From contig CAZTCF010000002.1 of NCBI GenBank assembly GCA_964612685.1, forward strand, positions 212 through 64,211: a stretch of DNA of 64,000 bases, in the 5' to 3' direction. The stretch is from Candidatus Woesearchaeota archaeon. Lineage in GTDB: Archaea > Nanobdellota > Nanobdellia > Pacearchaeales > GW2011-AR1. Made by a program: the position numbers and the translations under genes. This document shows, in pieces, positions 3,001 through 40,080 of the stretch. Every line of letters starts with the position of its first letter. The stretch's first letter is position 1. A model generated the notes under the pieces. The model made no database searches. It was not told the origin of the DNA and was given only the letters and a program-made list of their open reading frames with translations.

Positions 3001-3060
3001 CAATATCTAGAGAACCACATTCAGAACTTCCAGCACCAGGATTCAATATTATTCTTCTGT
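1..3060 (-). repeat. Intragenic tandem duplication of a roughly 1.5-1.65 kb beta-helix module within the giant gene, seen as two diverged copies (about 1640..3060 and about 1..1640)
   Basis: Parallel peptide landmarks sit about 1650 nt apart. NCSYDSE...RWYY(K/Q)AYVNDSSG appears near 1950 and near 300. (N/Y)xNDSN(E/I)FNFTITQN appears near 1650 and near 10. PG(P/A)...C...TLT(E/G)NISS appears near 3050 and near 1600. Confidence 0.6.
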
Positions 3061-6000
3061 CTTCTGTATTATTATCAAGAACATTGGAATTTCCATAGCT
3101 TGAATTAAATAAAACATCCAACAAGTATTCTTGATTGGGGGTTGTTGATGTAACGTTTATTGTCCAGTTCGGATAAAAAGATTCTCCCTCATTAAGAACT
3201 GCTGAAGATGTTTGTGGATTTGAGGCTCCTCTAGAACCATTGACTTTGATTTCAATAAAATCAACTTCGATAGAAGTAGTAAGAGAATCACTATTACCTT
3301 TTACAAGAATCTGAATTATTCCATCAGAACCAATTATATCATCTATTTTTAGGGAAGTAGTTTTGTTAAAGGTTAAATTATGATATTGGAAACCCTCTAA
3401 ATTAATTGAAGATACTTGCTTCCATGGATCACCCATGATGCCTCCGCTATAATTATATACAAAAACAGTAAATTGATAATCTGAACTAGAATATGATCTT
3501 CCATATATTGAGAGATTTATCTCATTTATGGAATCTTTTGACTCTAAAATTTTAAAATCAAATTTCTCATAAGGTTTATTCGATCCAAATCCAGATGGAA
3601 GGGAAGTTTTTGTAACAAATCCATCAATAAAAACTAGATTAGAATAACCTTCATTATAAAACTCATATTGATTATTAGGTTGAAATGAGACAAATGAAGA
3701 ACATGAGCCATTAGTAGCTTTATGTGTTGAAGAAGGATTAGTTATCCCACTAAAATTATAGACATATATATCCTCTCCACCACTTCCAAGGTTATAAAAA
3801 GGAGATCCTCCTTCACTAATATTAATATTTGTATCGGGAGAAGCACTTGAAAGATTATATCTCGCTGTCGCACTTACTGTTCCGCAATATGCTCCACCCA
3901 CACAAGTCACACTTGCATTTATTGTTAAATTAGTATTTCCAGTAAAGTATCCAGAATCATTTGCAGGAAGAATTATGCTAACATTTAAGATACCATAATA
4001 AGGAGTCGTTGTCAAAGTATAAACAGGTGTTGAATTATAATTTGGTGTTGAATAAGAATCTTTGAAATACCACCTATAACCTATAATCGCCCCACTAGTT
4101 GAATTCAATGTTTTTGTAACATTTGCCCAGGAAGGAGTTGAGGTGAAATTAACTGCACTATCATTCACCCAAGCCCCAGTATTATTAGTTGAGAAAATAT
4201 ATTGCCCATTTGGATGCAATGCAATATTATCAGTCACATTTATTGCAAAATTAGTTATTTGCCCTGCAAGAGTGTTATTAACTGAAACAGAATTATACTG
4301 GGGAGAAGTTAAATCAACAGGCTCTGCATATGTTATTTTTAACATACCTTGTGCTCCTGTTCCTCCAACCCCATTAGTTCCCCCTGCTTTTTCTCCTCCA
4401 CCTCCAGCTCCACCATAATTAAGTCCAGCATCTCCACTTGCGTCTGTGTTACCTGCACCTCCATCTCCTCCCCCAATTGAAGTTCCTATTCCTCCTGTAG
4501 CACTTGTACTATTTCCACCCCAACCAGTTGTTCCAGAACCTCCTCCTCCTCCTCCTCCTGATGAACTCCCAGTGTATCCATTTCCGCCCCCATAAATTGT
4601 GGTACCCACACCTCCAGAAATAGAACCTAAGCCTCCAGCCCCTGCAGCTTTATTAATTCCTCCTTTACCTCCTTCACCACCCATTGCAACAACATAATTT
4701 CCTGTAGAATTGAAGAAACTTGTATTATATCCTTGTGAACCATCACCTGTACCCCCCGTTATTGATGAAGCAATAAAAATGTTAAAAGTAGTCGAAGGAG
4801 TTACAGTTAAATTACGTTTAGCATACTGGCCACCTGCTCCGCCTCCTCCACCATAACCACTCGATATAGAACCTCCACCTGCTCCGCCTCCTCCCCAAGC
4901 TTCAATCATTATTTCAGTAACTTCGGTAGGAACCTGCCATGTGTTTGCACCAGTTGTAATATTAAATACTGCTATACATGTTCCTGAAACGCAACTTAAG
5001 TAATCTGGAGGATCAACAATATAATCAAACTCAACACTTCCTCCAATAATTCTCAAATCAAATGTATCTTGCTCTCCAATCAGACTTGTCAAGAATCTTT
5101 TGTTATAAGAATTATTAATAATTGGATTAAATTCGGCAATCAATGTGCTTTCATTCACTTCATAAATCTCAATCCTTGGTGTTCCCGAAACTATTCTTGG
5201 ATATACTGTTATATCCCTATCACTTGTCAAATTACTCTCAAAAGTAACTCTAACATAATCTCCATCAGGAATTTCCTCACTCCAAATATCATCTAATAGA
5301 ACAACCTCTTGGTAGATATCCGAAATAAAGTCTCTAGTTGAGTTAAGATGATGTGCAAAGATTATTACAATAACTTCTGCAAAAGCAGGATCTTCTGGAT
5401 TTAAAGTGAAATTATAAGTCTCTCCAGGAGTGATATCCATAACTTTAATCCATTCCCCATAACATGTTTGTTCAGTGAAATTCCAATCCTGACATTTGTA
5501 TAATTCATTACCCGTTGCAAATACAGTTACTGTAGCATTTGTATTTAAATGAGGATTTAATGCATAAACATTAGTAAAATTTTCTACTTCGGAAGGCTGA
5601 TCAATATCAATTATTCCTTCAGTGTAGTTTTCAATTAAAGTATTTTCATATTCAATTTGGAATATGGGATTTCCAACAGGATTTATTAAAATATCTTTCT
5701 CCCCTTCTTCAACAGATATTAATTCTGATTCAGTCATAGTTGAATTCATTTCAACTTCCTGACTTTCAGTATTATAGATTATAACTTCAGCTTCCTGAAA
5801 ATTTCCTTGTGCATCATTTAAAGACACATTCATCAATACAAGCGGAGGTAGAACTGTAATATTTCCTATTATTGAACCTAGATTATCTGAGCTATCATTT
5901 GCAAAAATTGTATAAGTGTAATTTCCTGCAGATAATCCAGAAGTATTAATTGTCCCGTTCCATAAATCATTGCTTGCAGGAGTTGTATAATTTACTTCAA

Positions 6001-9000
6001 ACCAAACTTCATATATCTTTAATGTTGACTCTGAATTATTAAGATGTATTTCTGTAAGAAGATTGAAATCTGCAAAACTCCAGTCCCTTTCTGATGTAAC
6101 ATCAAATTCTGTTATCTCTGGTGTTTCACTTGTTGAATTAAATTCATGGGTTAAACCTTGCTCTTCTCCTCCATTAGAGCTTGCCCAATGTAAATACCCT
6201 ATTGTGTCATAACTTAATTTAGAATGAATAACTTTTACCTTTACTGAATTTATTATACCTGCTACGCTCACTCCAGAAGTTTTTATTGTTAAGAGAGGAT
6301 TAACTGCATTTATTCCTGAAGAAGTATCATTATTATTATCATAAGAGTTAAGATAATTAACCACCCTGTTAGTTTCAATTGTACCTTTTGCAGCAGGCCT
6401 TATTATTGCAACATTTGAGATTGTTTGAGGATTTTGTCCTAATGAATAATTTAAATTATCTATCTCAATTATTGCTCCCTCAACTTCCAAATTATCTGTA
6501 ATATTTGCTGTTAAACTTAGGTTTTCTCCTTCTCTAATTGTTGACGGAATACTCACTGAATTTATTACAGGAACTTGAGATTCATTATAAGTTATGTTTA
6601 ACTGAGGTCTGATTGTAGCGTTAATATTATCACTTGAAGGGAAATGCCATTGTCCATGTCCGTTTTCACCATAAAGTATAATCCCATAATTTTCGTAAGT
6701 TCCATTAACCCAGTTCTGTACTAACTGAGTTATATCCAATGTATAATAAGTTCCTGCTGTTGTTAAATTTCTAATTGCCCATACTCTTGAATCAAAATCC
6801 CCTCCAGGGATATCCCAACTTTCTGTTCCGCTTCTGTTAGTCCAGGTTACTCCATCATAAGTATTCTGGCTATCCCCTGTACCCTCAATCCAGCTGTTAT
6901 TTATCCTATAAACACTTATGGGATTAGTTCCTGTTCCTGCAGAAGATAAATAGAAAGTAAGATTTGCATTAACAATATTTGCTGTTTCTGTTACATCGGA
7001 TAAATCAAATTCTAGCAACATTCTTTCTGTGTTACTTATTATCATAGAAGTAGATGCGCCAAAATTTCTGTTTGGAGTTGAACTATCAATATGAGCATCT
7101 TTTCCTTCTGTCCCTAATTGGATAGTTATCAAAAATGTCTGATTGGATAAATGAGGAACAATCCATTCAACATAATCATAAAATCCGTTATTATCTTTGT
7201 CTTCAACCCTCTCTGCAGGAAGGTAAACTTCTTCTTCAATCCAATATATTTTCAGTTCAGAAGGACTTCTTATATCCAAACTTTCACTTAAATTTGTAAA
7301 TGCTAAAACATTTTCATAATGAACCTCTTCAGAACCTGCAATTATTACTTTCTTTCCTTTTTCAGTTTCTTCTTCAGAAGAGTATGGTGCAGGAGTTTCA
7401 TACTCAATTTCATATAAGTCAGAATTATCTTCAATCAATACTTCTATTGAGTTTGATCTTTCTTTAATTTTTTTATTTTCAGTAAGAAGCTTCCCTTGGG
7501 AAGGACTCGACTCTTCTTTTTGAGAAGCTTCTTTTTCTGAATATGATTCCCTATCAATAATCTTGCTAACACTAATTTTCTCAGAACCCTTTGGAAGTTC
7601 AATTTTAACATTCCCTTTTTCAGGAAGTTCAATTTGCTTTTTCCATTTTACTGGCTGTCCAAGAACTGCATCATACTGAATAGTGTTTATTGTAATATTT
7701 TCCAAGATAATAGGAACTTCTTCCAGAATAATAGAATAATCAATACTCCCTAGCCTTAGTGTAGCATTTCCTTCTATCTCCACCCTTAAAGTATAAGAAG
7801 AATTTGTTAAACTCAATTTTTCAAGATTGCATGTATCTTCACAAACCCCATTAAAGATATTTTCAGTTAGAGACTCCTCCTGGGAAGGACTCGACTCTTC
7901 TTTTGAAGGAGTCTCTGTTTCTGAATATGATATATTGGATTGTGTTTCATTGCTTTCCTGTTCATAAGTAACATTTGTTTGAACTTCTCTCTCATTAGTT
8001 TCAATATCTTCTGTTTGATTTCTCTGGGGGTATGATTGATTTGTTTCAGTTAGAGACTCCTCCTGGGAAGGACTCGACTCTTCTTTTGAAGGAGTCTCTG
8101 TTTCTGAATATGAAATCGATTCGTTTTCTGTTTGAGGCGTATCATCCAAAGTCTTATCTAAACTTTCAGAAGCTTGAGGTTCCTCCTGGGAAGGACTCGA
8201 CTCTTCTTGCAAAGGAACCTCGCTCTCTATCTTCTCTTCTGAATATGATACTTCTGATGAAATTGTTTGAGAATTTGTAGTTTCAGTTAGAGACTCCTCC
8301 TGGGAAGGACTCGAATCTTCTTTTGAAGGAGTCTCTGTTTCTGAATATGAATCTTCTGAAGTAGTTGTCTGAGAATCTGTTGTTATTGTTTCGGTTTCTT
8401 CAATAATCATTCCGGTTAAAGGAGAATTATATTTTGGAGAACTTGATTTCGATTTAATCTTTGAACTATCCAATATTAACAAATCATTGAGATAAACTTT
8501 AATCTCTCCCTCTCCTTTTATCTCACCATTAATTTTAACTGAACTTAATTGTCCAGGATTTTCTAAGTTCAATTCATAATTTGTAGATTCATTAGTTATC
8601 AGTCCAATTATCTGTGAATACTCTTGTTCCTGAAATCCTTCACCCACAAAAAATCCTGTTAACCCAATACTAGAATAATCTAAAGAAAGAGCAGCAAAAA
8701 TAAACCCTCCTAAAAATAGAACTCCAAAAAATAAAGCTAAAACTCTGTTCCTTATTACCTTTGCCTTTTGTCTCTCGATCGCCTTTTCGCAGTTCTTAGA
8801 ATAATTTTCATAATAATCAACCCACTCTTTTATGTTTCTTCCATTGGTTTTTTTCGTGAGCGTCTCTACATATTTTGCCCCAGAAATCTGTTTATTTGCA
8901 TGTGCTTGATTTAATCTTTTTAAATAATCAACAAGCTCATTTTTTCTGCTTTGAGAAGCCTCTTTATTTCTTTGTAAACTACTAACTAGTGCCTTTGCTA

Positions 9001-9016
9001 ATCGAGTCCTTCCCAT
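1..9016 (-). CDS. Giant cell-surface protein (more than 3005 aa in window; C-terminus lies beyond the window start). Has N-terminal cytoplasmic region plus one TM helix, acidic tandem repeats, a Gly-rich tract and tandem parallel beta-helix (PbH1-like) modules
   Basis: Manual translation of the minus strand from ATG at 9016..9014 (preceded by in-frame TAA at 9022..9020) runs with no stop to position 2, in the frame whose top base is 1 mod 3. The protein begins MGRTRLAKALVSSLQRNKEAS..., with a hydrophobic helix VLALFFGVLFLGGFIFAALSL. Repeats of SYSETETPSKEESSPSQEESLTE follow, then a Gly-rich block (GGGGAGGGSISSGYGGGGGAGG), then many N-x-[ST]-rich beta-helix-like repeats (NITLYNITGGSEYGLIVNGTTNSNFTYISFNNITIAG...). 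All listed ORFs in 1..9000 are short and fall in other frames. It is absent from the ORF track because it is incomplete. Confidence 0.8.
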   Translation of the reverse strand, partial: MGRTRLAKALVSSLQRNKEASQSRKNELVDYLKRLNQAHANKQISGAKYVETLTKKTNGRNIKEWVDYYENYSKNCEKAIERQKAKVIRNRVLALFFGVLFLGGFIFAALSLDYSSIGLTGFFVGEGFQEQEYSQIIGLITNESTNYELNLENPGQLSSVKINGEIKGEGEIKVYLNDLLILDSSKIKSKSSSPKYNSPLTGMIIEETETITTDSQTTTSEDSYSETETPSKEDSSPSQEESLTETTNSQTISSEVSYSEEKIESEVPLQEESSPSQEEPQASESLDKTLDDTPQTENESISYSETETPSKEESSPSQEESLTETNQSYPQRNQTEDIETNEREVQTNVTYEQESNETQSNISYSETETPSKEESSPSQEESLTENIFNGVCEDTCNLEKLSLTNSSYTLRVEIEGNATLRLGSIDYSIILEEVPIILENITINTIQYDAVLGQPVKWKKQIELPEKGNVKIELPKGSEKISVSKIIDRESYSEKEASQKEESSPSQGKLLTENKKIKERSNSIEVLIEDNSDLYEIEYETPAPYSSEEETEKGKKVIIAGSEEVHYENVLAFTNLSESLDIRSPSELKIYWIEEEVYLPAERVEDKDNNGFYDYVEWIVPHLSNQTFLITIQLGTEGKDAHIDSSTPNRNFGASTSMIISNTERMLLEFDLSDVTETANIVNANLTFYLSSAGTGTNPISVYRINNSWIEGTGDSQNTYDGVTWTNRSGTESWDIPGGDFDSRVWAIRNLTTAGTYYTLDITQLVQNWVNGTYENYGIILYGENGHGQWHFPSSDNINATIRPQLNITYNESQVPVINSVSIPSTIREGENLSLTANITDNLEVEGAIIEIDNLNYSLGQNPQTISNVAIIRPAAKGTIETNRVVNYLNSYDNNNDTSSGINAVNPLLTIKTSGVSVAGIINSVKVKVIHSKLSYDTIGYLHWASSNGGEEQGLTHEFNSTSETPEITEFDVTSERDWSFADFNLLTEIHLNNSESTLKIYEVWFEVNYTTPASNDLWNGTINTSGLSAGNYTYTIFANDSSDNLGSIIGNITVLPPLVLMNVSLNDAQGNFQEAEVIIYNTESQEVEMNSTMTESELISVEEGEKDILINPVGNPIFQIEYENTLIENYTEGIIDIDQPSEVENFTNVYALNPHLNTNATVTVFATGNELYKCQDWNFTEQTCYGEWIKVMDITPGETYNFTLNPEDPAFAEVIVIIFAHHLNSTRDFISDIYQEVVLLDDIWSEEIPDGDYVRVTFESNLTSDRDITVYPRIVSGTPRIEIYEVNESTLIAEFNPIINNSYNKRFLTSLIGEQDTFDLRIIGGSVEFDYIVDPPDYLSCVSGTCIAVFNITTGANTWQVPTEVTEIMIEAWGGGGAGGGSISSGYGGGGGAGGQYAKRNLTVTPSTTFNIFIASSITGGTGDGSQGYNTSFFNSTGNYVVAMGGEGGKGGINKAAGAGGLGSISGGVGTTIYGGGNGYTGSSSGGGGGGGSGTTGWGGNSTSATGGIGTSIGGGDGGAGNTDASGDAGLNYGGAGGGGEKAGGTNGVGGTGAQGMLKITYAEPVDLTSPQYNSVSVNNTLAGQITNFAINVTDNIALHPNGQYIFSTNNTGAWVNDSAVNFTSTPSWANVTKTLNSTSGAIIGYRWYFKDSYSTPNYNSTPVYTLTTTPYYGILNVSIILPANDSGYFTGNTNLTINASVTCVGGAYCGTVSATARYNLSSASPDTNINISEGGSPFYNLGSGGEDIYVYNFSGITNPSSTHKATNGSCSSFVSFQPNNQYEFYNEGYSNLVFIDGFVTKTSLPSGFGSNKPYEKFDFKILESKDSINEINLSIYGRSYSSSDYQFTVFVYNYSGGIMGDPWKQVSSINLEGFQYHNLTFNKTTSLKIDDIIGSDGIIQILVKGNSDSLTTSIEVDFIEIKVNGSRGASNPQTSSAVLNEGESFYPNWTINVTSTTPNQEYLLDVLFNSSYGNSNVLDNNTEDRRIILNPGAGSSECGSLDIENKSCTLTGNISSLENGFNITAQNITLDCGGYYIIGDNVENSKGILINSSNITIRDCKFSNFPIDVYVENADNITLYNITGGSEYGLIVNGTTNSNFTYISFNNITIAGILVTNNSHGNTFTDININSSAHGIYIDRGQNNTFDCANGLINYSINGVDARYGIYTNQFNTTIRNCNIIDGNRSGGYLSRRGIYLDNGDNSTLFNNYVNTSNSQAIYLSSSDYVNLTNNSAFASSNQGIRISSSSRNILINNNVISSSQYATALTSGSSNNTLINHTAIATSDSIRFESSSNNNIFINTNTSGRYGFHFEDSSYNNITDCIYVSGSTNDVYAEFETISSTGNIFLNCSYDSENTTGEGNQIIRRWYYKAYVNDSSGNAVEGANITAYNTTGDIQFTALTNLTGHILVQNITEYVNTSGTVSYYNNYTVNASKIGYINDSNEFNFTITQNKVDDFMTLEIPGPADCTTIGNSGTLDVEGQTYTLTENISSQGTCLTVSAANVTVDCNGYWITFSTGGAIGTRGVYTNQFNTTVKNCRILDGNWTNADPWRAGVFFTIGADYGLIQNVSTNVSNCHGIDINGGSGIRVVNSTGRTKEYHGIIIWTDTSNITIINSTGISNTSAGKGIYGNNNSIYNSTGQSTYDGYGFYIDSASNNLISGCNASSNLNHGIYLRNSTNNTLISNNATSSSSGGIVINSYSSNNTLIGNNATSNTGSGIYILAFSNNNTLLRNNATTNSVSGQAIYIYNSSYMNLTENKATSTSSSGIYIEESSDNNTLTSNNGTSYAADNFGIVLGTSSNNILINNTGMNVNNGIGIYVAGSSNNNTLINNTGISSIGQGIYLFSNYNNTFINQRASGNLGIFMVNVNWTTFRDCIDISGTTFDVNLFSTPLSKNNTFINCSYDSETVGGTDNELIRKWYYQAYVNDSSGSAVSDANVSAYNATGVLQSTAQTNASGWIARQEVTEYVNNAGTRSYYNNYSIFANKSGYTNDSNIFNFTITQN
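7480..8350 (-). repeat. In-frame tandem coding repeats (about 66-nt conserved core, at least 5 copies, variable spacing) inside the giant gene, encoding an acidic Ser/Glu/Thr/Pro-rich unit
   Basis: The core ...agactcctcctgggaaggactcgactcttcttttgaaggagtctctgtttctgaatatga... recurs near 7491, 7861, 8041, 8181 and 8281. Each copy translates to ISYSETETPSKEESSPSQEESLTE on the minus strand. Confidence 0.8.
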
Positions 9017-9119
9017 TACTTATTATTTATGTAATATACCTTATAAATATATCTATTATTTATTAAAAATACTTATTATATATGTATAAATAATAAACAG
9101 AAATTTGTAGTTATAATAA

Positions 9120-21208: not shown

Positions 21209-21844
21209 ATGAAAAAACCAATCATTGTAATAAATCTTAAAACATATCAACAAGGTGAAAAATCAGTTAAAATTGCAAAGGAAATTGAGAGAGTTGATAA
21301 AAATATAATTCTGGGAGTTCAAGCAAGTGATATTTATGAGATTGCAAAGAAAACAAAACTTAAAGTTTATGCACAACATGTTGATCCCTTTGAACCCGGC
21401 AGAAATACTGGATATATCCTGCCGGAAGCTGTAAAGAAAGACAAAGCAATAGGAGCTTTCCTTAATCATTCGGAACACAAGCTAACTCTAGATGTAATAA
21501 AAAAAACCATTGCACGTTGTAAAAAAATAAAACTAAAGACAATGGTTTTTGTGAAAGATATTAAACAAGCTAAAGAAATTGAAAAACTCCACCCAGACTA
21601 TCTTATATACGAACCTCCAGAACTTGTAGCAGGAAATATTTCCATTAGCTCAGCAAAGCCTGAAATAATTAAGAATCTTTCAAAGAAGTTAAAGAAAACA
21701 ACACCCTTCCTGGTTGGTGCTGGAATAAAAACCCGAGAAGACATAACCCTATCAATGAAGTTAGGAGCATCAGGCATTGCAGTCTCTTCAGCAATAACAC
21801 AGGCTAAGATACCTGGAAAGAAATTGAAGGAACTTATAGCTTAA
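21209..21844 (+). CDS. tpiA: Triosephosphate isomerase, short archaeal type
   Basis: 211 aa. PIIVINLKTY, NHSEHK and IYEPPELVAGNISISSAKPE match the archaeal TIM signature (EPPELIGTG variant). Confidence 0.8.
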   Translation: MKKPIIVINLKTYQQGEKSVKIAKEIERVDKNIILGVQASDIYEIAKKTKLKVYAQHVDPFEPGRNTGYILPEAVKKDKAIGAFLNHSEHKLTLDVIKKTIARCKKIKLKTMVFVKDIKQAKEIEKLHPDYLIYEPPELVAGNISISSAKPEIIKNLSKKLKKTTPFLVGAGIKTREDITLSMKLGASGIAVSSAITQAKIPGKKLKELIA

Positions 21845-22176
21845 TACTTAAATCTCTTTTCGTATGTTTTATGATCCATCCATTCTAGAACAATTGAGAG
21901 AACTTCAATTCCATCTCTACCTACAGAATAAATAAGTCTCCATCCTCTTGGTAAATCATATTTCCATAAATTATCTATATTATATTTTGAAACATAAATT
22001 GGAGGTATTAATCTCTTGGGTATTTGTATGCCTGAGAAAGCATTTAATTTTAAGTTATCCAAAGCTTGTTTTACATGATTATACAATTGTTGTTCTTCTA
22101 ATTTACCTTTTTTTAGTTCTTCTAGACTTTTTCTAAGACTTTCTTCTGCAAAAAATACTTTAGATTTTATTTCCAT
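21841..22176 (-). CDS. RelE/ParE-superfamily toxin-like protein with N-terminal extension
   Basis: C-terminal half LPRGWRLIYSVGRDGIEVLSIVLEWMDHKTYEKRF resembles the RelE/YoeB core (yRiiYei...H.K.Y). Overlaps the upstream partner ORF by 10 nt. Confidence 0.5.
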   Translation of the reverse strand: MEIKSKVFFAEESLRKSLEELKKGKLEEQQLYNHVKQALDNLKLNAFSGIQIPKRLIPPIYVSKYNIDNLWKYDLPRGWRLIYSVGRDGIEVLSIVLEWMDHKTYEKRFKY

Positions 22177-22436
22177 TCTAAATTCTGTTTTTTAAGATAT
22201 TTTTTTACCAGTATTGGATTCCAAATCCAACCTATTTTTCCTTCTCTGTCTACGGCTATCCTATTGGAATAAAGCAGATAATCAATAATAACTGAAAATG
22301 TTTGGTACATCATCTTTTTTGGGAGTCTTAACCAGAGTTGTTTTTTGGTAAATTCTCCGCTAGTTTGATAAATTAATCTTTCTACCATTAATACACTATC
22401 TAAACGAGGATAGTGCAATATTTTTTGAATATCCAT
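22167..22436 (-). CDS. Hypothetical 89-aa protein, upstream partner of the RelE-like gene (candidate antitoxin of unrecognised family)
   Basis: Co-oriented, overlapping the toxin-like gene, TATA-like tttataaattt upstream. No recognisable RHH/HTH motif seen. Confidence 0.35.
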   Translation of the reverse strand: MDIQKILHYPRLDSVLMVERLIYQTSGEFTKKQLWLRLPKKMMYQTFSVIIDYLLYSNRIAVDREGKIGWIWNPILVKKYLKKQNLEWK

Positions 22437-22505: not shown

Positions 22506-23171
22506 TTGATTCTTGGAAAGAGTATGCCTTACAAATTATCTCCATCATCTTTATCTTTAATGAATGAATGTCCAAGATGTTTCTGGCTAGATAAGCATAA
22601 TGTCTGGAAAAGACCCTCAGGTATTTTCCCCTCTCTTCCTTCTGGAATGGATGGAATATTGAAAACTCATTTTGATAAGTTCAGAGATAAAGGAATATTA
22701 CCTCCTGAGCTGTGCGATAATGGAGAGTGCACAAATATGAAATTATTCAATGAACCTGAATTAATGAAATCCTGGAGAAATAATCTTAAAGGAATAAGAT
22801 GGGAAGATAAAAAAGGGAATATATTATTTGGAGCAGTTGATAATATACTCCAGAAAGGAGAAAAGTTAATTGTTTTAGATTATAAAACAAGAGGATACCC
22901 TGTAAAAGATGATACAGCAGAACATTACCAGAATCAGTTAGACATTTACAATTTCTTGCTTAGAAAAAACGGATATAAAACAGAAGATTATGCTTTTTTG
23001 TTGTTTTATATTCCTAAAGAAGTCGCAGATACAGGAGAAATAATTTTTGATACAACATTAAAGAAGATGAAAATATATGTGAAGAATGCAGAGGATATAT
23101 TCAACAAAGCAATTAAGCTATTAGATGAAGATTGTCCAACTAAAACTTGTGAGTGGTGTGAGGGAAGATAA
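22506..23171 (+). CDS. Cas4-like PD-(D/E)XK nuclease with Fe-S cysteine cluster (RecB-family, DUF83-like). No cas/CRISPR context
   Basis: N-terminal CPRC, C-terminal C-x4-C-x2-C (CPTKTCEWC), D...DYK motif (LIVLDYKTRG) and QNQLDIY (QxxxY) motif, in that order as in Cas4/AddB nuclease domains. Confidence 0.6.
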   Translation: MILGKSMPYKLSPSSLSLMNECPRCFWLDKHNVWKRPSGIFPSLPSGMDGILKTHFDKFRDKGILPPELCDNGECTNMKLFNEPELMKSWRNNLKGIRWEDKKGNILFGAVDNILQKGEKLIVLDYKTRGYPVKDDTAEHYQNQLDIYNFLLRKNGYKTEDYAFLLFYIPKEVADTGEIIFDTTLKKMKIYVKNAEDIFNKAIKLLDEDCPTKTCEWCEGR

Positions 23172-23847
23172 GATGATAAAGGCCATCCTCTTTGATATTG
23201 ATAACACTCTAATTGATTTCATGAAAATGAAAGAAAAGAGCTGCGAAGCAGCTGTTGAAGCAATGATTTCTAAAGGGTTAAAAATGAAGAAGCAAGAAGC
23301 TATGAAAGAGATTTATAGCATATATGATAAAAGAGGAATGGAGTATAGAGATGTTTTTGAGAAAATAATAAAGAAAGGAAATGGAAAAATAGATTACAAA
23401 ATAATGGCTTCTGGTGTTCTTGCATATAGAAAGGCCAAGGAAAATCATCTTATCACATATCCTGGAGTTACAAGTACATTAACTAAACTGAAAAAGAAGT
23501 ATAAATTAGCAATTGTAAGTGATGCTCCAAGTATGAAAGCCTGGACAAGACTAATTTCAACGGATATTGATAAATTCTTTGATGTAATTATAACAAGAGG
23601 GGATGTTAAGAAGCAAAAGAATTCTTTTGTTCCATTTAATGCTGCATTGAAAAGATTGAACATTAAACCAGAAGAAGCTATTATGGTTGGAGATAGAATT
23701 GAAAGAGATATTCACACTGCAAAGAAGCTTGGAATAAACACATGCCTCGCAAGATATGGTATAGAAAATCCTCCCGCACGAGGGGAAAGCGGAGCGGATT
23801 TTGAAATTGATGATGTTAGGGAGTTGGTGAGAGTTGTTGAAAAGTAG
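23172..23847 (+). CDS. HAD-superfamily hydrolase (phosphatase-like)
   Basis: Motif I FDIDNTLIDF right after the proposed start MIKAIL, motif II IVSDAP, motif IV VGDRIERDIHTAKKLG. The track ORF start at 23125 overlaps the upstream gene; 23172 is the likelier start. Confidence 0.75.
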
Positions 23848-25534: not shown

Positions 25535-27133
25535 TTATCTGGGATCAACAACTTTTCCAATGAACAGAATATTTCCAGTTTCCTTTTCCTGAATTATAAA
25601 TATAAACGGATGATCTGCCCTAAACTCTATAAATCTTGGCATTGCAGCTCCAAAACCCATACTGACTATAGTTGCTGCAGCTGCTTCTGTGCCTTCTTCA
25701 TAAACATCAATGTAAGCCTTGTGCAGGACTTCATCAATGTAAAGCATTTCTGTTCCATCTATTCCTGAAAAATCTGCACCTGGCCAGACAAAAGGAAGGC
25801 TCATCCCCATACTTTTTAGATAATCTGTTAATGAATAAGTTGTTTCAAAATGATATTTTGGAAGATAAATAAAAACTATTTCAGGTTCCATTTCGCTTCT
25901 CCACTCCTTGAGTTTTTCTTCACTTAAAATTGATTCTAAGTGTGTAATGTTGCTGAGAGAGAGGTTTTCATTTAATCCAAATTCATATTTATAGTAATTG
26001 TATTCATCATCTTCAGAAGCTTCTGTTCTTGGAAGAAGTACTAGCATGGATATTTTGTCTCCCTTATAAGGCATTTCAAGTATCTGAATTCCATCAGATT
26101 CGCAGTAGTTGAATTTCAATTCATCATCCCTAAGTTGCATCGTAGGAATTTGTACTTTTTTACCTGATTCAAGAGTAAAATCTTTTTGTTTTGTATCTTT
26201 TTTATCAAACTGATGTTCCCACTTTCCTTTGAAATAAATAGCATTAGTCAGAACAGCGCGTGTTAAAGGATCAAACATGTTAGGAGAAGCTATATTCTTT
26301 ATTTTATTGTTTGTATTCTTTGAGACCCAATTATTTATTTCAGAACTTGCTTGCCCGGGATTTTTTACAAAATCAAGAGTATTAACGTTTCCTAGATAAT
26401 ACCTGCTTATTGTATCTTTGTACTCCTGTAAAAAAGGATAATCTTCCTGTAACCAGATTGCATTTGCTGTACTTAATTGGTATTTTCCTCCTCCTTTATT
26501 TATTGTGTTTAACATATTTGCATAAGAAGATCTTCTTAAAGAATCCTCTTCAGGGAAATAGAATACATTTTGGATTTCATTAGCTGTTTCTCCTCTGGCC
26601 CCTTCATATACCATTGCCATTGCGTTCGATATACTCCATGGAGAAAAAAAGATATTTCCTTCAGAATCATCTTTTATTTTAGAATATAAATCAATAGAAA
26701 ACTGATTGTTCGCTCTTACTGCCTCTTCTACTCCTTCTGCTGTTGCTCCTCTATCATCTGCAGCTTTAACAAAAATATCACTCATTCCAAGATTAAAAAA
26801 ACTATACAACAAAATTCCTATTAATATTATTAAACTTAAAACAATCAATTTCTTTTTATTCCAGTTTATCTTGTTTTCGAGGATCCCAAAAAATGCAATT
26901 AAGCTACAAGAAATAAGATAAAACCAAAGAATATCTAATATTAATCCAAGAAGCATTCCAATTATTCCAAACATGCCAAAGAAAAATATAGGAAATATCA
27001 TTATATATAATATAATAAGGGGTATTTTTGTCAACCCCGTACTTTCAGATTTGAAAAACAAAAAAACCGCAAAAGCCAAAAGAAGAATTGTCAAAGCTAT
27101 TTTTTTCCAGTTACATTTAAAGAATTCACCCAT
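25535..27133 (-). CDS. Serpin (inhibitory-type serine protease inhibitor) fused to an N-terminal polytopic membrane domain (about 3-4 TM helices)
   Basis: Serpin core motifs NAIYFKGKWEHQFDKKDT, a hinge/RCL EEGTEAAAATIVSMGFGAAMPRF and a C-terminal FRADHPFIFIIQEKETGNILFIGKVVDP. The N-terminal 120 aa is strongly hydrophobic (IALTILLLAFAVFLFF, IPLIILYIMIFPIFFFGMFGIIGMLLGLIL, LIVLSLIILIGILLYSFF). Confidence 0.8.
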   Translation of the reverse strand: MGEFFKCNWKKIALTILLLAFAVFLFFKSESTGLTKIPLIILYIMIFPIFFFGMFGIIGMLLGLILDILWFYLISCSLIAFFGILENKINWNKKKLIVLSLIILIGILLYSFFNLGMSDIFVKAADDRGATAEGVEEAVRANNQFSIDLYSKIKDDSEGNIFFSPWSISNAMAMVYEGARGETANEIQNVFYFPEEDSLRRSSYANMLNTINKGGGKYQLSTANAIWLQEDYPFLQEYKDTISRYYLGNVNTLDFVKNPGQASSEINNWVSKNTNNKIKNIASPNMFDPLTRAVLTNAIYFKGKWEHQFDKKDTKQKDFTLESGKKVQIPTMQLRDDELKFNYCESDGIQILEMPYKGDKISMLVLLPRTEASEDDEYNYYKYEFGLNENLSLSNITHLESILSEEKLKEWRSEMEPEIVFIYLPKYHFETTYSLTDYLKSMGMSLPFVWPGADFSGIDGTEMLYIDEVLHKAYIDVYEEGTEAAAATIVSMGFGAAMPRFIEFRADHPFIFIIQEKETGNILFIGKVVDPR

Positions 27134-27214: not shown

Positions 27215-27260
27215 CTAAAACCTCTCCCTCTTCCCATACTTCGTATGCAGCAACTTTTCT
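27215..27260 (-). repeat. Copy 3 of the conserved 3-prime-end element, here inside the coding 3-prime end of hydA (encodes ...LLHTKYGKRERF*)
   Basis: cctctccctcttcccatacttcgtatgcagcaacttttctgc with aattaatt upstream. About 90% identical to copies 1 and 2 over about 35 nt. Confidence 0.8.
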
Positions 27261-28921
27261 GCTTTCTTGCTAAGTGGCTGTCCTAGATACTTCTTGTAAA
27301 TATCTTTCACAATTGGATTTTCATGAGAACGTCTGTATTCACGCATACTGTCTTGCTTGTAAAGTGCTTGAGCTCTAAGTGTTAGCACTTTATCATCAGA
27401 GTATATTGGTTGTCCTCCTCCACCCACACATCCTCCAGGACAAGCCATCATTTCAATGAAATCATATTTGTCTTTATTTCTTAGAAGCTTTCTTATATTT
27501 GCTCCTCCAGACGCTGTAGCATAACGTATTTTTCTTCCATTAAGCATTATTGTCCCCTCTCTTATACTGCTATCTTTTGTTCTTAGATTTTGAAATTCAA
27601 CTTTTTCGAGACGTTTTTTTGTTGAGAGTTCATATGCTGTTCTTAATGCAGCTTCCATAACCCCTCCAGCTGCCCCAAAAATATCTCCTGCCCCACTTGC
27701 TAATCCCAGTGTTGGATCAAAATTGGAATCTTCTAGATTTGCAAAATCAATATTTTTTTGTTTTATTAATCTTCCAAGCTCTCTTGTTGTTAAAACATAA
27801 TCAACTCCTGTTTCTAATTCTGGTCTTGTTGACTCAAACTTCTTTGCTGTACATGGCATTATGCTCACCACGATTATATCCTTAGGATTAATCTTTGCAA
27901 GTTCTGCATAATAACTTTTTATTAACATCCCAGACATTTCATGAGGAGATTTACATGTTGACATATTAGGTATTAATTCTGGATAAAAGAATTCCATCAT
28001 TAATATCCAAGATGGACAGCAAGTTGTAATTAAAGGAAGCACTGCTTTTTTCCCCTGTTTCAATCTTTTAAGAAGTTCAGCTGATTCTTCCATTATTGTC
28101 ATATCTGCTCCTAAGTCAACATCAAAAACTTTATTGAAACCACATTTCTTTAAAGCAGAAACCATTTTTCCTGTAACTAAAGTTCCTGCAGGCATATCAA
28201 ATAATTCTCCTAGGCTTGCCCTTACTGCAGGAGCTGTCTGAGCTACAACATGCTTTTTAGGATTGTTTAATGCTTTGATAACTTCAGGAAGATGTGTACG
28301 TTCACTTATAGCCCCAACAGGACAATTAATTAAACACTGTCCACATTCAATACATGCAACATCTTCTAATTTCTTTTCATCGTATGGGGTTACATGTTCA
28401 TTATGAGCTCTACTTGAAAAGTCAATAGCATATATTTCTTGAATTTTACCACACACCTGAACACATTTACCACAATTAATACATTTATTGTTGTCTCTTA
28501 TTATTGCAGCACCTAAATCTGGATGATAATCTTTAATTGATTTGAATCTTTCATATTCAATTCCAATCTGGTCATACACTTCCTTTGCTTCAAAATCCCC
28601 TCCTAATTCTTTATATTCGATATCTGGACTCATTAATTCAAGATTGATTTTTCTTGATTTGATTATTTTTTCAGAATTAGTTACAATTACTGCATTCTCA
28701 ATAGGCTTTGTTGAACAAGACGTAACTAATTTTCCATTCATCTCAACTAAACACACCCTACATCTTGCTTCAGGAAAAAGATTTTTGTGGAAGCAGAGGG
28801 TTGGAATTTTGATATCGTTTTCTTTACAAATTGTTAAAATTGTTTTATTTGGGTCCACATCAAGTTGTTTGTTGTCTAGGGTTATTTTCATTTTAATGTT
28901 TGTAAAACTCTCCTTGCCCAT
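27215..28921 (-). CDS. hydA: [FeFe]-hydrogenase catalytic subunit HydA, multi-cluster form (N-terminal 2Fe-2S + His-ligated 4Fe-4S + 2x4Fe-4S + H-cluster domain)
   Basis: H-cluster motifs L1 ITTCCPSW, L2 IMPCTAKKFE and L3 IEMMACPGGCVGGGGQP. N-terminal plant-ferredoxin-like C-x11-C-x2-C...C, NuoG-like H-x3-C-x2-C-x5-C (HPDLG...CINCGKCVQVC), and CIECGQCLINCP ferredoxin motif. Confidence 0.85.
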   Translation of the reverse strand: MGKESFTNIKMKITLDNKQLDVDPNKTILTICKENDIKIPTLCFHKNLFPEARCRVCLVEMNGKLVTSCSTKPIENAVIVTNSEKIIKSRKINLELMSPDIEYKELGGDFEAKEVYDQIGIEYERFKSIKDYHPDLGAAIIRDNNKCINCGKCVQVCGKIQEIYAIDFSSRAHNEHVTPYDEKKLEDVACIECGQCLINCPVGAISERTHLPEVIKALNNPKKHVVAQTAPAVRASLGELFDMPAGTLVTGKMVSALKKCGFNKVFDVDLGADMTIMEESAELLKRLKQGKKAVLPLITTCCPSWILMMEFFYPELIPNMSTCKSPHEMSGMLIKSYYAELAKINPKDIIVVSIMPCTAKKFESTRPELETGVDYVLTTRELGRLIKQKNIDFANLEDSNFDPTLGLASGAGDIFGAAGGVMEAALRTAYELSTKKRLEKVEFQNLRTKDSSIREGTIMLNGRKIRYATASGGANIRKLLRNKDKYDFIEMMACPGGCVGGGGQPIYSDDKVLTLRAQALYKQDSMREYRRSHENPIVKDIYKKYLGQPLSKKAEKLLHTKYGKRERF

Positions 28922-29106
28922 TTTCTATCAGACTCTTTTTCTTTTTCAGATAATTTTGAATAAGGTTGTTTTATTTGTTTTTTCCATCTTTCTATATTTT
29001 CTTTTGTAAGATTCTTAAGCATATAATTAGTCCAGTGGGCCCATTGCTTATGTTCTAGATTAGCTAACTTTTCTATTAACGTTTTATCTTCTTGATTTAT
29101 TTTCAT
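28888..29106 (-). CDS. Small Trp/Lys/Glu-rich protein (72 aa from MKINQEDKTL...) encoded between hydB and hydA, translationally coupled
   Basis: ATG at 29106..29104 overlaps the hydB TGA stop (29105..29103) as ATGA. Its 3-prime end overlaps the hydA start by 34 nt. The track's longer 28888..29190 ORF extends into the hydB coding region. Confidence 0.4.
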   Translation of the reverse strand: MKINQEDKTLIEKLANLEHKQWAHWTNYMLKNLTKENIERWKKQIKQPYSKLSEKEKESDRKWARRVLQTLK

Positions 29107-30239
29107 TTTTTGATATACTCCATGTAATCCCCTTTGAAGTGTTCTAATGAAGTGAGTATATGAGCTGTTGAAGATTGTCCTAACCCGCACAAGCTAGTTT
29201 CTTTTATATGATATGAAAGCTCTTTCAACATCTCTAAATCTTTTTCATTTGCTTTTCTATCTCTAATCTTTTTTAGAATATTCAATACTCTGATTGTCCC
29301 CTCTCTACATGGAGTGCATTTTCCACATGATTCGTAAGTGTAAAATTTAGCTATACTTAAACAAATATCCACAATATTCCTATTTTTTCCTATAAAGATA
29401 ATTGTAAATGCTCCGTGCTGACAATCTTCTTTACATATCGTTTCAGTTGTTACCAACGAATTCTTATCTATAGGCATTATCCCACCAAAACATCCAAAGG
29501 AGAGAGCTTTTATTTCCTGAGTTGGTTTAACCGTATCAAGAATTGTTGACATCTTAACTCCTAACTCCCATTCATATATACCTGGATTTTCAACATCCCC
29601 TGAAATTGAAAAAAGCCTCAGATTTGGATTCCAATCTTTGTAAAGTAAAGCTTGTGCAACACAAGTAAGTGTTTCAACATTATTCAAAACAGTTGGACTC
29701 TCCCATAATCCCTCTTCAGTAGGGTAAGGGGGTTTGTACATTGATTGTCCTCTATATCCCATAATTGATTGCATTATTGCAGTCTCCTCCCCACAAATAT
29801 ATGCTCCTGCCCCTCTTACTATTTCAATCTCAACCTTATTTTGCATTTTAGATTTTTTAATTACTTCTTGAATTGTGTTTTCTAAATCTTCTCTTAAAAA
29901 TTCATACTCATTTCTTAAGTAAATAAATGCTCTTTTTACGCCTAGGACATAAGAAGCAATTAAGATGCCCTCAATTAAAGTTTCTGGATTATTTTTTAAA
30001 ATAAATCTATCCTTGAATGTTCCAGGTTCTCCCTCATCAGCATTACATATAAGATAAATTTCTTTAGATTTATTCTTTTTTTTACTATTAAGAGCAAGCT
30101 TCCACTTTTTTGCGAGTGGAAAGCTTGCACCACCTCTTCCTACCAAAGATTTTTTTTCAAGAATTTGTAGTACTTTTTCTGGCCCTAATTCTTTTGCAAG
30201 TTTCAATGCTTCAAGGTTTGTTTCTCTTAATATTTGCAT
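29103..30239 (-). CDS. hydB: NuoF-like NAD(P)H-binding flavoprotein subunit of the hydrogenase (HydB, minimal 378-aa form)
   Basis: GRGGASFPLAKKW (FMN/NADH region, like the NuoF GRGGAGFPTG.KW) and the 4Fe-4S motif ESCGKCTPCREGT. Confidence 0.8.
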   Translation of the reverse strand: MQILRETNLEALKLAKELGPEKVLQILEKKSLVGRGGASFPLAKKWKLALNSKKKNKSKEIYLICNADEGEPGTFKDRFILKNNPETLIEGILIASYVLGVKRAFIYLRNEYEFLREDLENTIQEVIKKSKMQNKVEIEIVRGAGAYICGEETAIMQSIMGYRGQSMYKPPYPTEEGLWESPTVLNNVETLTCVAQALLYKDWNPNLRLFSISGDVENPGIYEWELGVKMSTILDTVKPTQEIKALSFGCFGGIMPIDKNSLVTTETICKEDCQHGAFTIIFIGKNRNIVDICLSIAKFYTYESCGKCTPCREGTIRVLNILKKIRDRKANEKDLEMLKELSYHIKETSLCGLGQSSTAHILTSLEHFKGDYMEYIKK

Positions 30240-35738: not shown

Positions 35739-35799
35739 TTAACTTCTTGAATAAACGGGTTTTTAAAATTAGAGATTCTCAACAAGACAAATTAAAAAA

Positions 35800-35873
35800 T
35801 GGCTTTGGGGAGATTCTAACTCCCGACCTCGGCCTCATGAGAGCCGCGCTCTAAACAACTGAGCTACAAAGCC
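35800..35873 (-). tRNA. tRNA-Met (anticodon CAT; elongator-type G1-C72; could be Ile2/CAU)
   Basis: Minus-strand 74-nt cloverleaf GGCTTTG-TA-GCTC-AGTTGTTTA-GAGC-G-CGGCT-CTCATGA-GGCCG-AGGTC-GGGAG-TTAGAAT-CTCCC-CAAAGCC-A. No encoded CCA. All stems pair. Confidence 0.85.
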
Positions 35874-35955
35874 ATAACAATCGATGTTGTTTTACCTTCA
35901 GATTTTAAACAACTAAACCATTTAAAAGTTTAACTTTTAGAAAAATATAACTTAA

Positions 35956-39977: not shown

Positions 39978-39980
39978 AAT

Positions 39981-40080
39981 AGCCCCACCAGGATTCGAAC
40001 CTGGGTCCCGGCCTCTCTTCATCTTATCTATTTTCAAGATACCAAAGGGCCGTATACTTGACCACTGTACTATGGGGCTA
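39981..40080 (-). tRNA. tRNA-Gln (anticodon TTG) containing a 27-nt intron at the canonical 37/38 position
   Basis: Minus strand AGCCCCA-TA-GTAC-AGTGGTCAA-GTAT-A-CGGCC-CTTTGG[TATCTTGAAAATAGATAAGATGAAGAG]A-GGCCG-GGAC-CCAGG-TTCGAAT-CCTGG-TGGGGCT-A. The exons give a 73-nt cloverleaf with archaeal A1-U72. Confidence 0.7.

Follow-up and report, generated by a model that had tools for sequence, protein, structure and literature searches.

What does a Cas4-like nuclease do when it is encoded alone, with no CRISPR-Cas system around it? The question is raised by a gene in a 64-kb stretch of DNA from a Candidatus Woesearchaeota archaeon (contig CAZTCF010000002.1; G+C content 31.9%). The whole stretch is called the window here, and everything reported as absent from the window refers to the 64 kb examined. 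DPANN archaea, with their reduced genomes, have kept few DNA-processing enzymes, solo Cas4-like nucleases being among them, and what these nucleases do has been in question since 2017. We analysed the fold, metal ligands, conservation and genomic surroundings of the nuclease and its relatives, and suggest, with a probability of roughly 60%, that it is a metal-dependent DNA nuclease of the RecB/Cas4-like PD-(D/E)XK type that is inherited vertically and serves a housekeeping role in Woesearchaeota (DPANN).

An open reading frame (ORF) at 22506-23171 on the forward strand was confirmed in the ORF listing of the window and matched Pfam PDDEXK_1 (PF12705) with 41.5 bits (gathering threshold 22; E=2e-10; residues 107-219). 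The same PF12705 match is present as a precomputed annotation on 120 of 120 listed homologs, and near-identical deposited proteins are already annotated as 'PD-(D/E)XK nuclease family protein'. In close homologs, the protein is 215-216 aa long and begins with MPYKLSP or M..KLSP, corresponding to the residue at ATG 22524. These lengths and the shared N-terminus indicate that translation starts at ATG 22524 rather than at TTG 22506, giving a single-domain protein of 215 aa encoded at 22524-23171 (+) with the stop codon TAA at 23169-23171. The preliminary description of the locus had used the TTG, which would add six residues found in no homolog and is simply the first in-frame start after a stop codon.

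An AlphaFold2 model built from an alignment of 83 sequences was of high confidence (pLDDT 96.5, pTM 0.91). Its best Foldseek match in the PDB was the Cas4 domain of a type I-G Cas4/Cas1 fusion (7mi5; E=8e-6, TM-score 0.49), and further matches were AdnA (9np6), RecE (3h4r), MGME1 (5zyt), ACE1 (9iac), lambda exonuclease (6m9k), AddAB (4ceh) and a DinG-associated nuclease; the Foldseek probability was 1.0 for Cas4, AdnA, RecE, MGME1 and lambda exonuclease. In BFVD, the matches were phage PD-(D/E)XK, Cas4-like, RecE and RecB-family exonucleases, with TM-scores up to 0.65. Searching PDB sequences with the single protein gave nothing meaningful, while the family profile gave weak matches to AdnA (E=3e-4), ACE1 (1e-3), Cas4 SSO0001 (3e-3) and Pcal_0546, to all of which it aligned the GAxDD, LDYK and QxxxY motifs and the C-terminal CxxC.

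The catalytic residues can be placed on this basis. D106 in GAVD (22839-22841, +) is the first acidic residue, matching the D of 'GRADAI' in the alignment with Cas4 SSO0001 (4ic1); D119-Y-K121 in LDYK (22878-22886, +) is the (D/E)xK motif and aligns to 'ViEiK' of the same protein; and Q138-LDI-Y142 (22935-22949, +) is the QxxxY motif typical of RecB/Cas4-type nucleases. D106, D119, K121, Q138 and Y142 are each at least 96% conserved among 225 full-length homologs. N-terminal of the region covered by PDDEXK_1 lies a helix with the near-invariant motif GMDxxxKxxFDxxR (D43, K47, D51 and R54; 22650-22685, +), which may bind metal or the DNA end. Given the PDDEXK_1 score, the 3,477 clusters of homologs and the Foldseek matches, the assignment to the PD-(D/E)XK superfamily is far above chance, and we are confident that the protein belongs to its RecB/Cas4-like clade. 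The preliminary description had proposed a standalone Cas4-like PD-(D/E)XK nuclease, and this was borne out by the PDDEXK_1 match together with the alignment of the catalytic D, D-x-K and QxxxY to SSO0001; neither membership in an unrelated Cys-rich family nor a misalignment of the D/E/K residues was found. Of the motif order that it gave, CPRC, QxxxY and C-x4-C-x2-C are present, but there is no literal D-x-DYK, as D106 lies 13 residues before D119.

Four cysteines, C16, C19, C209 and C212, are each at least 95% conserved and essentially invariant among the 225 homologs. They form two CxxC pairs: C16-P-R-C19 (22569-22580, +), which is invariant family-wide, and C209-x2-C212 (23148-23159, +), which reaches at least 95% conservation across the family and lines up with the CxxC of SSO0001 and ACE1. 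Exactly these four cysteines and no others were present in 96 of 104 distant representatives. It is known that in Cas4, AddB and ACE1 the 'iron staple' holding the Fe-S cluster is made of one N-terminal and three C-terminal cysteines (C...CxxCx5C) (PMC12094033, PMC5704561). The nuclease ends three residues past C212 and lacks the canonical third cysteine at +5, and only 4 of the 104 distant representatives have any cysteine within 10 residues past C212. As read from the alignments, the family pattern is 2+2 (CxxC...CxxC) and not 1+3: the 'CPR' cysteine and the C-terminal CxxC are kept, and a second N-terminal cysteine, three residues past the first, stands in for the missing third C-terminal ligand. 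The two pairs would make up one Cys4 'staple', and the predicted site fits zinc as well as an Fe-S cluster. That the organism makes Fe-S proteins is clear from a [FeFe]-hydrogenase and a NuoF-like protein encoded 4-7 kb from the nuclease.

The spacing C204-x4-C209-x2-C212 (23133-23159, +), which can be read in the translation, had been taken for the Cas4/AddB 4Fe-4S signature. This does not hold, since C204 (23133-23135) occurs in one subgroup only, the spacing is non-canonical and the conserved set is 2+2. Like C204, the C64-x4-C69 loop (22713-22730, +) and the histidines H25, H49 and H134 are confined to the close subgroup from Woesearchaeota and Pacearchaeota and are missing in the distant branch. 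From their distribution and the sequence, C64, C69 and C204 might, with the three histidines, form a second metal site.

The family is very large. Homologs fell into 3,477 clusters at 90% identity (the 120 clusters listed were all 73-95% identical to the nuclease) and, at 50% clustering, into 1,121 clusters with E<1e-3. Scanning species-representative genomes with a profile from a 17-sequence alignment revealed relatives in at least 585 genomes; the best 80 loci among these, which are the ones listed, showed 64-94% identity to the query, and nearly all of them carried the label Woese-, Pace- or Nanoarchaeota. In the closest relative (L008), the gene order is the same as in the window: glycosyltransferase, PIG-L, PfkB kinase, aldolase, triosephosphate isomerase (TIM), toxin-antitoxin (TA) pair and nuclease. 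Between the two, the nuclease is 93.5% identical, the housekeeping neighbours are 75-91% identical and the TA pair reaches only 50-55%. In a further relative (L041), the nuclease is 70% identical and other ORFs take the place of the TA pair. The neighbours of the nuclease in the window, a PfkB kinase, a DeoC/LacD-family aldolase and TIM, are glycolytic. The preliminary description had suggested a small defence or accessory islet, and this can no longer be maintained: the gene is 93.5% identical in L008, its neighbours are glycolytic and only the TA pair changes fast. Comparison of the neighbourhood across relatives showed the gene order shared with L008 and variable flanks at the nuclease loci of Woesearchaeota and Pacearchaeota.

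The synteny and conservation of the nuclease are consistent with vertical descent and, judged by them, the gene is strongly conserved, vertically inherited and behaves as a core rather than an accessory gene. This matches previous work on the solo-Cas4 of DPANN archaea, which were reported to be common, to evolve mainly vertically under ordinary purifying selection and to lie next to restriction-modification (R-M) genes in several genomes (PMC5704561). Three short contigs with 71-79% identical nucleases (L020, L046 and L012) were binned into metagenome-assembled genomes (MAGs) that carry the labels Neomarinimicrobiota, Bacillota and Methanosarcinales; the most likely explanation is mis-binning of DPANN contigs rather than horizontal transfer.

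Taking these data together, a working model can be proposed for the housekeeping nuclease. In sequence terms, the Cys4 CxxC...CxxC bridges its N- and C-terminal helices, and this site may serve as a structural metal centre, either Fe-S as in Cas4, AddB and Exo5 or zinc. In this model the Cys4 is a re-wired 'staple' that has exchanged a C-terminal fourth ligand for one in the N-terminal helix. If it works like Cas4, Exo5, MGME1, RecE and ACE1, the enzyme would thread single-stranded DNA ends and trim them in a Mg2+- or Mn2+-dependent manner, and it may be used for DNA-end processing in repair and recombination in genomes that have no RecBCD or AddAB. Several points weigh against this interpretation. 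The substrate, polarity and bound metal are set by analogy; the likeness to solved structures is modest (TM-score at most 0.51 in Foldseek against the PDB); and no repair gene is consistently linked, with a Lhr helicase at 5 and a Hjc-like Endonuc_Holl protein at 4 of the 87 loci surveyed. Furthermore, the core status is judged from the loci retrieved, and the enrichment of R-M genes described below is also a classic 'guilt by association' sign of a defence gene, so that a defence-coupled role is possible.

The flanks of the nuclease were surveyed by clustering all ORFs within 8 kb of it at these 87 loci. The commonest neighbour family reached only 24 of the 87 loci, and the flanks were rich in singleton ORFs. 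The top families were DNA methyltransferases (MTases), namely an N6 gamma-type/type I-like MTase (24 loci), a DPPY N4/N6 MTase (17) and a C5 MTase (7), followed by a serine recombinase (9) and a DDE transposase (6); housekeeping genes (gyrB/gyrA, CDC48, aIF5B, CstA and MgtE) were also present. At least one MTase lay within 8 kb at 45 of the 87 loci and none at the other 42. Per flank, MTase density fell from 0.18 within the first kb to about 0.02 at a distance of 4-8 kb (odds ratio 11.4, p=1.3e-9), and the enrichment was seen on both sides of the nuclease, mostly in the same orientation. The R-M modules in these flanks included type I HsdM/S/R, type III Res and MmeI-like fusions, and also an MTase together with a PLD-SNF2 helicase. 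The type II MTases usually have one singleton ORF each alongside, which we read as the cognate restriction endonuclease (REase), and the modules appear complete without the nuclease. At one locus of a Pacearchaeota MAG (L015, 1144-7769), a DISARM- or type ISP-like defence module is found directly upstream of the nuclease homolog and consists of a 1,066-aa PLD-nuclease/SNF2-helicase followed by a 1,135-aa N6 methyltransferase. The idea that tRNA genes serve as the integration target was rejected, as a tRNA lay within 200 nt of the nuclease at only 1 of 60 loci.

A divergent branch of the family served as a control, taken from a metagenome scan that gave 80 loci at 38-49% identity to the first sequence of the query alignment. 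No MTase enrichment was found there: an MTase was present in 1 of 103 first-kb flanks and at 7 of 79 loci overall, as detected with hidden Markov models built from the MTases of the close subgroup, which could miss very divergent MTases. The absence of enrichment in the divergent branch indicates that the R-M association belongs to the locus in a single lineage and does not characterise the protein family. Instead, the nuclease of the divergent branch keeps a stable synteny with housekeeping genes, in the order cyclophilin, SIMPL, two small ORFs, nuclease, Elp3-like gene and beta-CASP RNase, or in radical-SAM/cupin/DJ-1 blocks. In the former subclade, the two small ORFs always precede the nuclease, after the cyclophilin and SIMPL genes. 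At nine of the divergent loci (L109, L112, L113, L115, L116, L121, L122, L124 and L127), two same-strand ORFs of about 116 and 122 aa were observed about 1 kb upstream. The 122-aa ORF directly adjoins the nuclease at 17 divergent-branch loci and could be a lineage-specific partner; neither of the small-ORF neighbours (m1 and m2) had a match in Pfam.

We read the nuclease locus of Woesearchaeota and Pacearchaeota as a cargo-integration hotspot or defence island around a conserved gene. Under the housekeeping model, R-M systems, TA cassettes and insertion-sequence or recombinase elements would land preferentially in its flanks, and the YoeB/ParE-like pair upstream of the nuclease in the window would be one such insertion. 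The adjacency of solo-Cas4 and R-M in DPANN archaea was noted qualitatively before (Hudaiberdiev et al., 2017; PMC5704561). The hotspot is notable because R-M systems are under-represented across DPANN archaea (PMC12988326).

Among the alternatives, the one that survives best is a defence-coupled nuclease that acts downstream of R-M in Woesearchaeota and Pacearchaeota and processes DNA ends made by restriction, either as a RecBCD-like 'clean-up' or by generating guides or fragments as ACE1 does with prokaryotic Argonaute, possibly feeding nucleotide salvage. An approximately 11-fold enrichment of MTase and R-M genes in the first kb, mostly on the same strand and extending to 45 of 87 loci in a lineage group where R-M is scarce (PMC12988326), argues for such a role, which Hudaiberdiev et al. 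inferred for the solo-Cas4 of DPANN archaea (PMC5704561); and ACE1 is a precedent for a Cas4-family nuclease that works with another immune effector (PMC12094033). In the window itself, a HAD-type hydrolase (23173-23847, +; TIGR02253 family, 179.9 bits, cutoff 169.75) starts 1 nt past the stop codon of the nuclease, is probably co-transcribed with it and has weak sub-cutoff matches to nucleotidase models, as would suit a link to salvage. However, the association is gone in the divergent branch (7 of 79 loci, with no enrichment near the nuclease), the HAD gene adjoins the nuclease at only 7 of 84 loci, and no R-M genes adjoin the nuclease of the window. Moreover, the MTases found as partners are of three unrelated classes and represent several R-M types, and they turn over rapidly among close relatives while the nuclease remains 65-95% identical, and strong conservation with vertical inheritance is atypical for defence genes. 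The core-gene behaviour and the lineage-limited R-M association make a defence-coupled role less likely, and we regard it as an unlikely alternative.

A combined scenario may also be considered, in which the nuclease is the missing RecBCD/AddAB-type end processor of Woese- and Pacearchaeota, the locus is an integration hotspot for defence genes and the enzyme acts as a 'shared nuclease' with any R-M system that lands beside it. We hold this to be rather improbable as a whole. If true, a shared nuclease that destroys restricted DNA or salvages nucleotides from it would be a new modular immune arrangement in DPANN archaea.

Relatives of the nuclease are also found in viruses. The protein matched the unannotated viral family phrog_31195 over its full length (E=9e-41; residues 4-213 to profile positions 5-219 of 232), and 19 IMG/VR contigs carry a relative, most of them 33-41% identical and on contigs of about 40-50 kb with a terminase, a DnaB-like helicase and MTases among their genes. 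On four of the viral loci (L096, L097, L101 and L102), a module of the order v5 (phrog_10048), v1 (weakly matching phrog_298, 'exonuclease'), v6 and nuclease was observed, with v5, v1 and v6 upstream of the nuclease homolog and DNA methyltransferases a few kb away; Pfam gave no match for v1, v5 or v6, and no annealase partner was identified among the scanned neighbours of the viral relatives. The full-length phrog_31195 match and the IMG/VR contigs would fit a viral, proviral or other mobile-element gene that lies in the window by chance. We consider this very improbable, as the window nuclease is chromosomal, with the synteny of PfkB, aldolase, TIM and nuclease shared by L008 and L041, and no viral hallmark genes lie near it; besides, the viral members are distant, just one viral contig has a close copy (72%), and no relative was found among the deposited phage genomes of INPHARED.

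The relation to CRISPR-associated Cas4 (SSO0001, 4ic1; Pcal_0546, 4r5q; 7mi5) is one of shared fold and different context. Both have a RecB-like fold of about 200 aa, and the D...(D/E)xK and QxxxY motifs, the N-terminal 'CPR' cysteine and the C-terminal CxxC all align. Nevertheless, the nuclease scored only 22.4 bits against the Cas4 equivalog TIGR00372 (cutoff 65; E=9e-5), had no match to PF01930 (Cas_Cas4) at E<=1, and gave weak matches to the PADLOC Cas4 models (E=6e-7 to 1e-4) and trace matches to AddA/AddB models. In addition, the TM-score is only about 0.49, no Cas1/Cas2 context exists, the second N-terminal cysteine replaces the third C-terminal one of CxxCx5C, and the GMDxxxKxxFDxxR helix motif is an extra conserved element. 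Thus, by its profile matches, the protein is not a Cas4 sensu stricto (TIGR00372/PF01930/COG1468), and of the profile searches that the preliminary description had suggested, PDDEXK_1 passed its cutoff whereas the Cas4 model TIGR00372 did not and PF01930 was silent. No Cas1 or Cas2 turned up when 61 window ORFs were scanned with PADLOC, the sole cas-like matches being the weak Cas4 ones on the nuclease itself, and TRF and a dedicated direct-repeat search (spacing up to 120 nt) found no CRISPR-like array in the window, where all short-spaced direct repeats fall within a giant ORF at 2-9019. The absence of cas1, cas2 and an array from the window, stated in the preliminary description, was therefore corroborated. 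Nor were cas genes or an array noticed in the annotated related loci and the identified recurrent neighbour families, the other loci not having been scanned.

It follows that a bona fide Cas4 serving an adaptation module elsewhere in the genome is hardly credible: the weak profile matches (TIGR00372 at 9e-5, PADLOC Cas4 at 6e-7) and the top Foldseek match to a Cas4 domain speak for it, but the score of 22.4 against 65 bits with PF01930 silent, the lack of cas1, cas2 and an array in the window and of any such genes noticed among the annotated and identified neighbours, the 2+2 cysteine pattern in place of 1+3, and the literature finding that CRISPR-Cas is mostly lacking in DPANN archaea (PMC5704561, PMC12988326) all speak against it. 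Equally implausible is the notion of an REase partner of the adjacent MTases in relatives, orphaned in the window: a PD-(D/E)XK nuclease is indeed often directly beside and co-oriented with an MTase, but the same nuclease lies beside gamma-type N6, beta-type N4/N6 and C5 MTases, which one specificity cannot fit; adjoining type I, type III and MmeI-like fused enzymes bring their own nuclease; a singleton ORF of its own, suited to be the cognate REase, stands beside most type II MTases; where no MTase is present to give protection, as in the window flank and at 42 of 87 loci, an REase would be lethal; and the fold is of the exonuclease-type RecB/Cas4/lambda-Exo clade. The role of cognate REase was therefore rejected, there being no obligate pairing with one matching MTase.

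Among known systems, the nearest to the housekeeping nuclease are the solo-Cas4 or pfam12705 Cas4-like proteins of DPANN archaea (PMC5704561), which share with it the stand-alone occurrence, the small-genome DPANN host and pfam12705 as the best profile. As in those proteins, there are no cas partners in 64 kb, inheritance is mostly vertical and R-M genes are adjacent in several genomes. The nuclease falls into their context class, with relatives in Woese-, Pace- and Nanoarchaeota MAGs, no cas context and vertical-type synteny. The paper describes a four-Cys Fe-S module in all Cas4-family members and no 2+2 arrangement, and in our data the R-M adjacency is quantified and is lineage-specific, not family-wide.

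The nuclease domains of AdnA/AdnB and AddB and the protein ACE1 (9iab/9iac) have the same catalytic motifs, AdnA (E=3e-4) and ACE1 (E=1e-3) are the best PDB matches of the family's sequence profile, and 'CRYC' of ACE1 aligns with the C-terminal CxxC. A metal 'staple' that ties the N- to the C-terminus is a concept common to AdnA, AddB, ACE1 and the nuclease. However, the former use 1+3 cysteines for a 4Fe-4S cluster (PMC12094033) and come with a helicase or Argonaute, either as a fusion or as a partner, whereas the nuclease is solitary and 2+2. Exo5, MGME1, RecE and lambda exonuclease are single-domain processors of DNA ends that serve replication, repair or recombination and belong to the same structural clade (Foldseek E from 1e-5 to 1e-3) at an identity of 9-16% and TM-scores of 0.35-0.46; unlike the nuclease, MGME1, RecE and lambda exonuclease have no Cys4 site.

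The occurrence of solo Cas4-like nucleases in DPANN archaea, their vertical inheritance and an occasional R-M adjacency are already in the literature. New in our study are the family-level 2+2 arrangement of the cysteines, the quantified and lineage-specific R-M hotspot and the finding that the nuclease is more conserved than its metabolic neighbours. The analysis of the nuclease revealed no new type of system; it characterises one very large family by its core-gene behaviour, its set of 2+2 metal ligands and a lineage-specific R-M hotspot, and offers a confidently modelled target of 215 aa for sharp contrasts, namely repair versus R-M-coupled defence and Fe-S versus zinc.

Just upstream of the nuclease, and not part of its unit, are two reverse-strand ORFs that overlap by 10 nt: a weakly YoeB/ParE-like toxin candidate of 111 aa (21841-22176, -) and a putative antitoxin of 89 aa (22167-22436, -). 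The 111-aa ORF has sub-cutoff matches (E about 0.006) to ParE_toxin (17.5 bits, cutoff 23) and YoeB_toxin (16.8, cutoff 27) and to TIGR02116 (13.5, cutoff 51.8), and its family profile matches the PDB YoeB 8yxv (E=0.002); profile searches assigned the 89-aa partner to no family. A RelE-like toxin pair had been reported here, which finds weak support: the 111-aa ORF is weakly ParE/YoeB-like, below the cutoffs, but its partner belongs to no known family. The toxin candidate is 50% identical in L008 and absent from L041. In L008, L024 and L052, the cassette lies upstream or downstream of the nuclease in either orientation, and L006 has a homolog of the 89-aa protein. The overlap of the ORFs and the mobility of the cassette fit a TA module, plausibly a mobile one of type II; it is a fast-turnover cargo insertion and not a functional partner of the nuclease. 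The HAD hydrolase was also considered as a family-wide partner, forming a nuclease-nucleotidase salvage pair, and was rejected; adjacency at 7 of 84 loci only makes it a case of local synteny.

Other genes of the window deserve brief mention. The ORF at 2-9019 (-) runs past the left edge of the window and encodes at least 3,006 aa with Beta_helix, NosD, disaggregatase-repeat and glycine-rich domains and direct repeats about 72-75 nt apart; it is a giant surface protein of a kind common in DPANN archaea. A serpin (25535-27133, -; Pfam 386.7 bits) has an N-terminal extension of about 140 aa that looks hydrophobic and membrane-spanning, suggesting a putative membrane-anchored protease inhibitor in an archaeon. 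At 27215-30239 (-), the [FeFe]-hydrogenase, with large- and small-subunit and ferredoxin-type domains, adjoins the NuoF-like flavoprotein, and the pair is a candidate FeFe hydrogenase module of the bifurcating type, here in a DPANN archaeon. Besides a normal tRNA-Met at 35799-35874, the window has a 100-nt tRNA at 39980-40079 (-), which Rfam detects with 53.8 bits and ARAGORN misses and which probably contains an archaeal intron.

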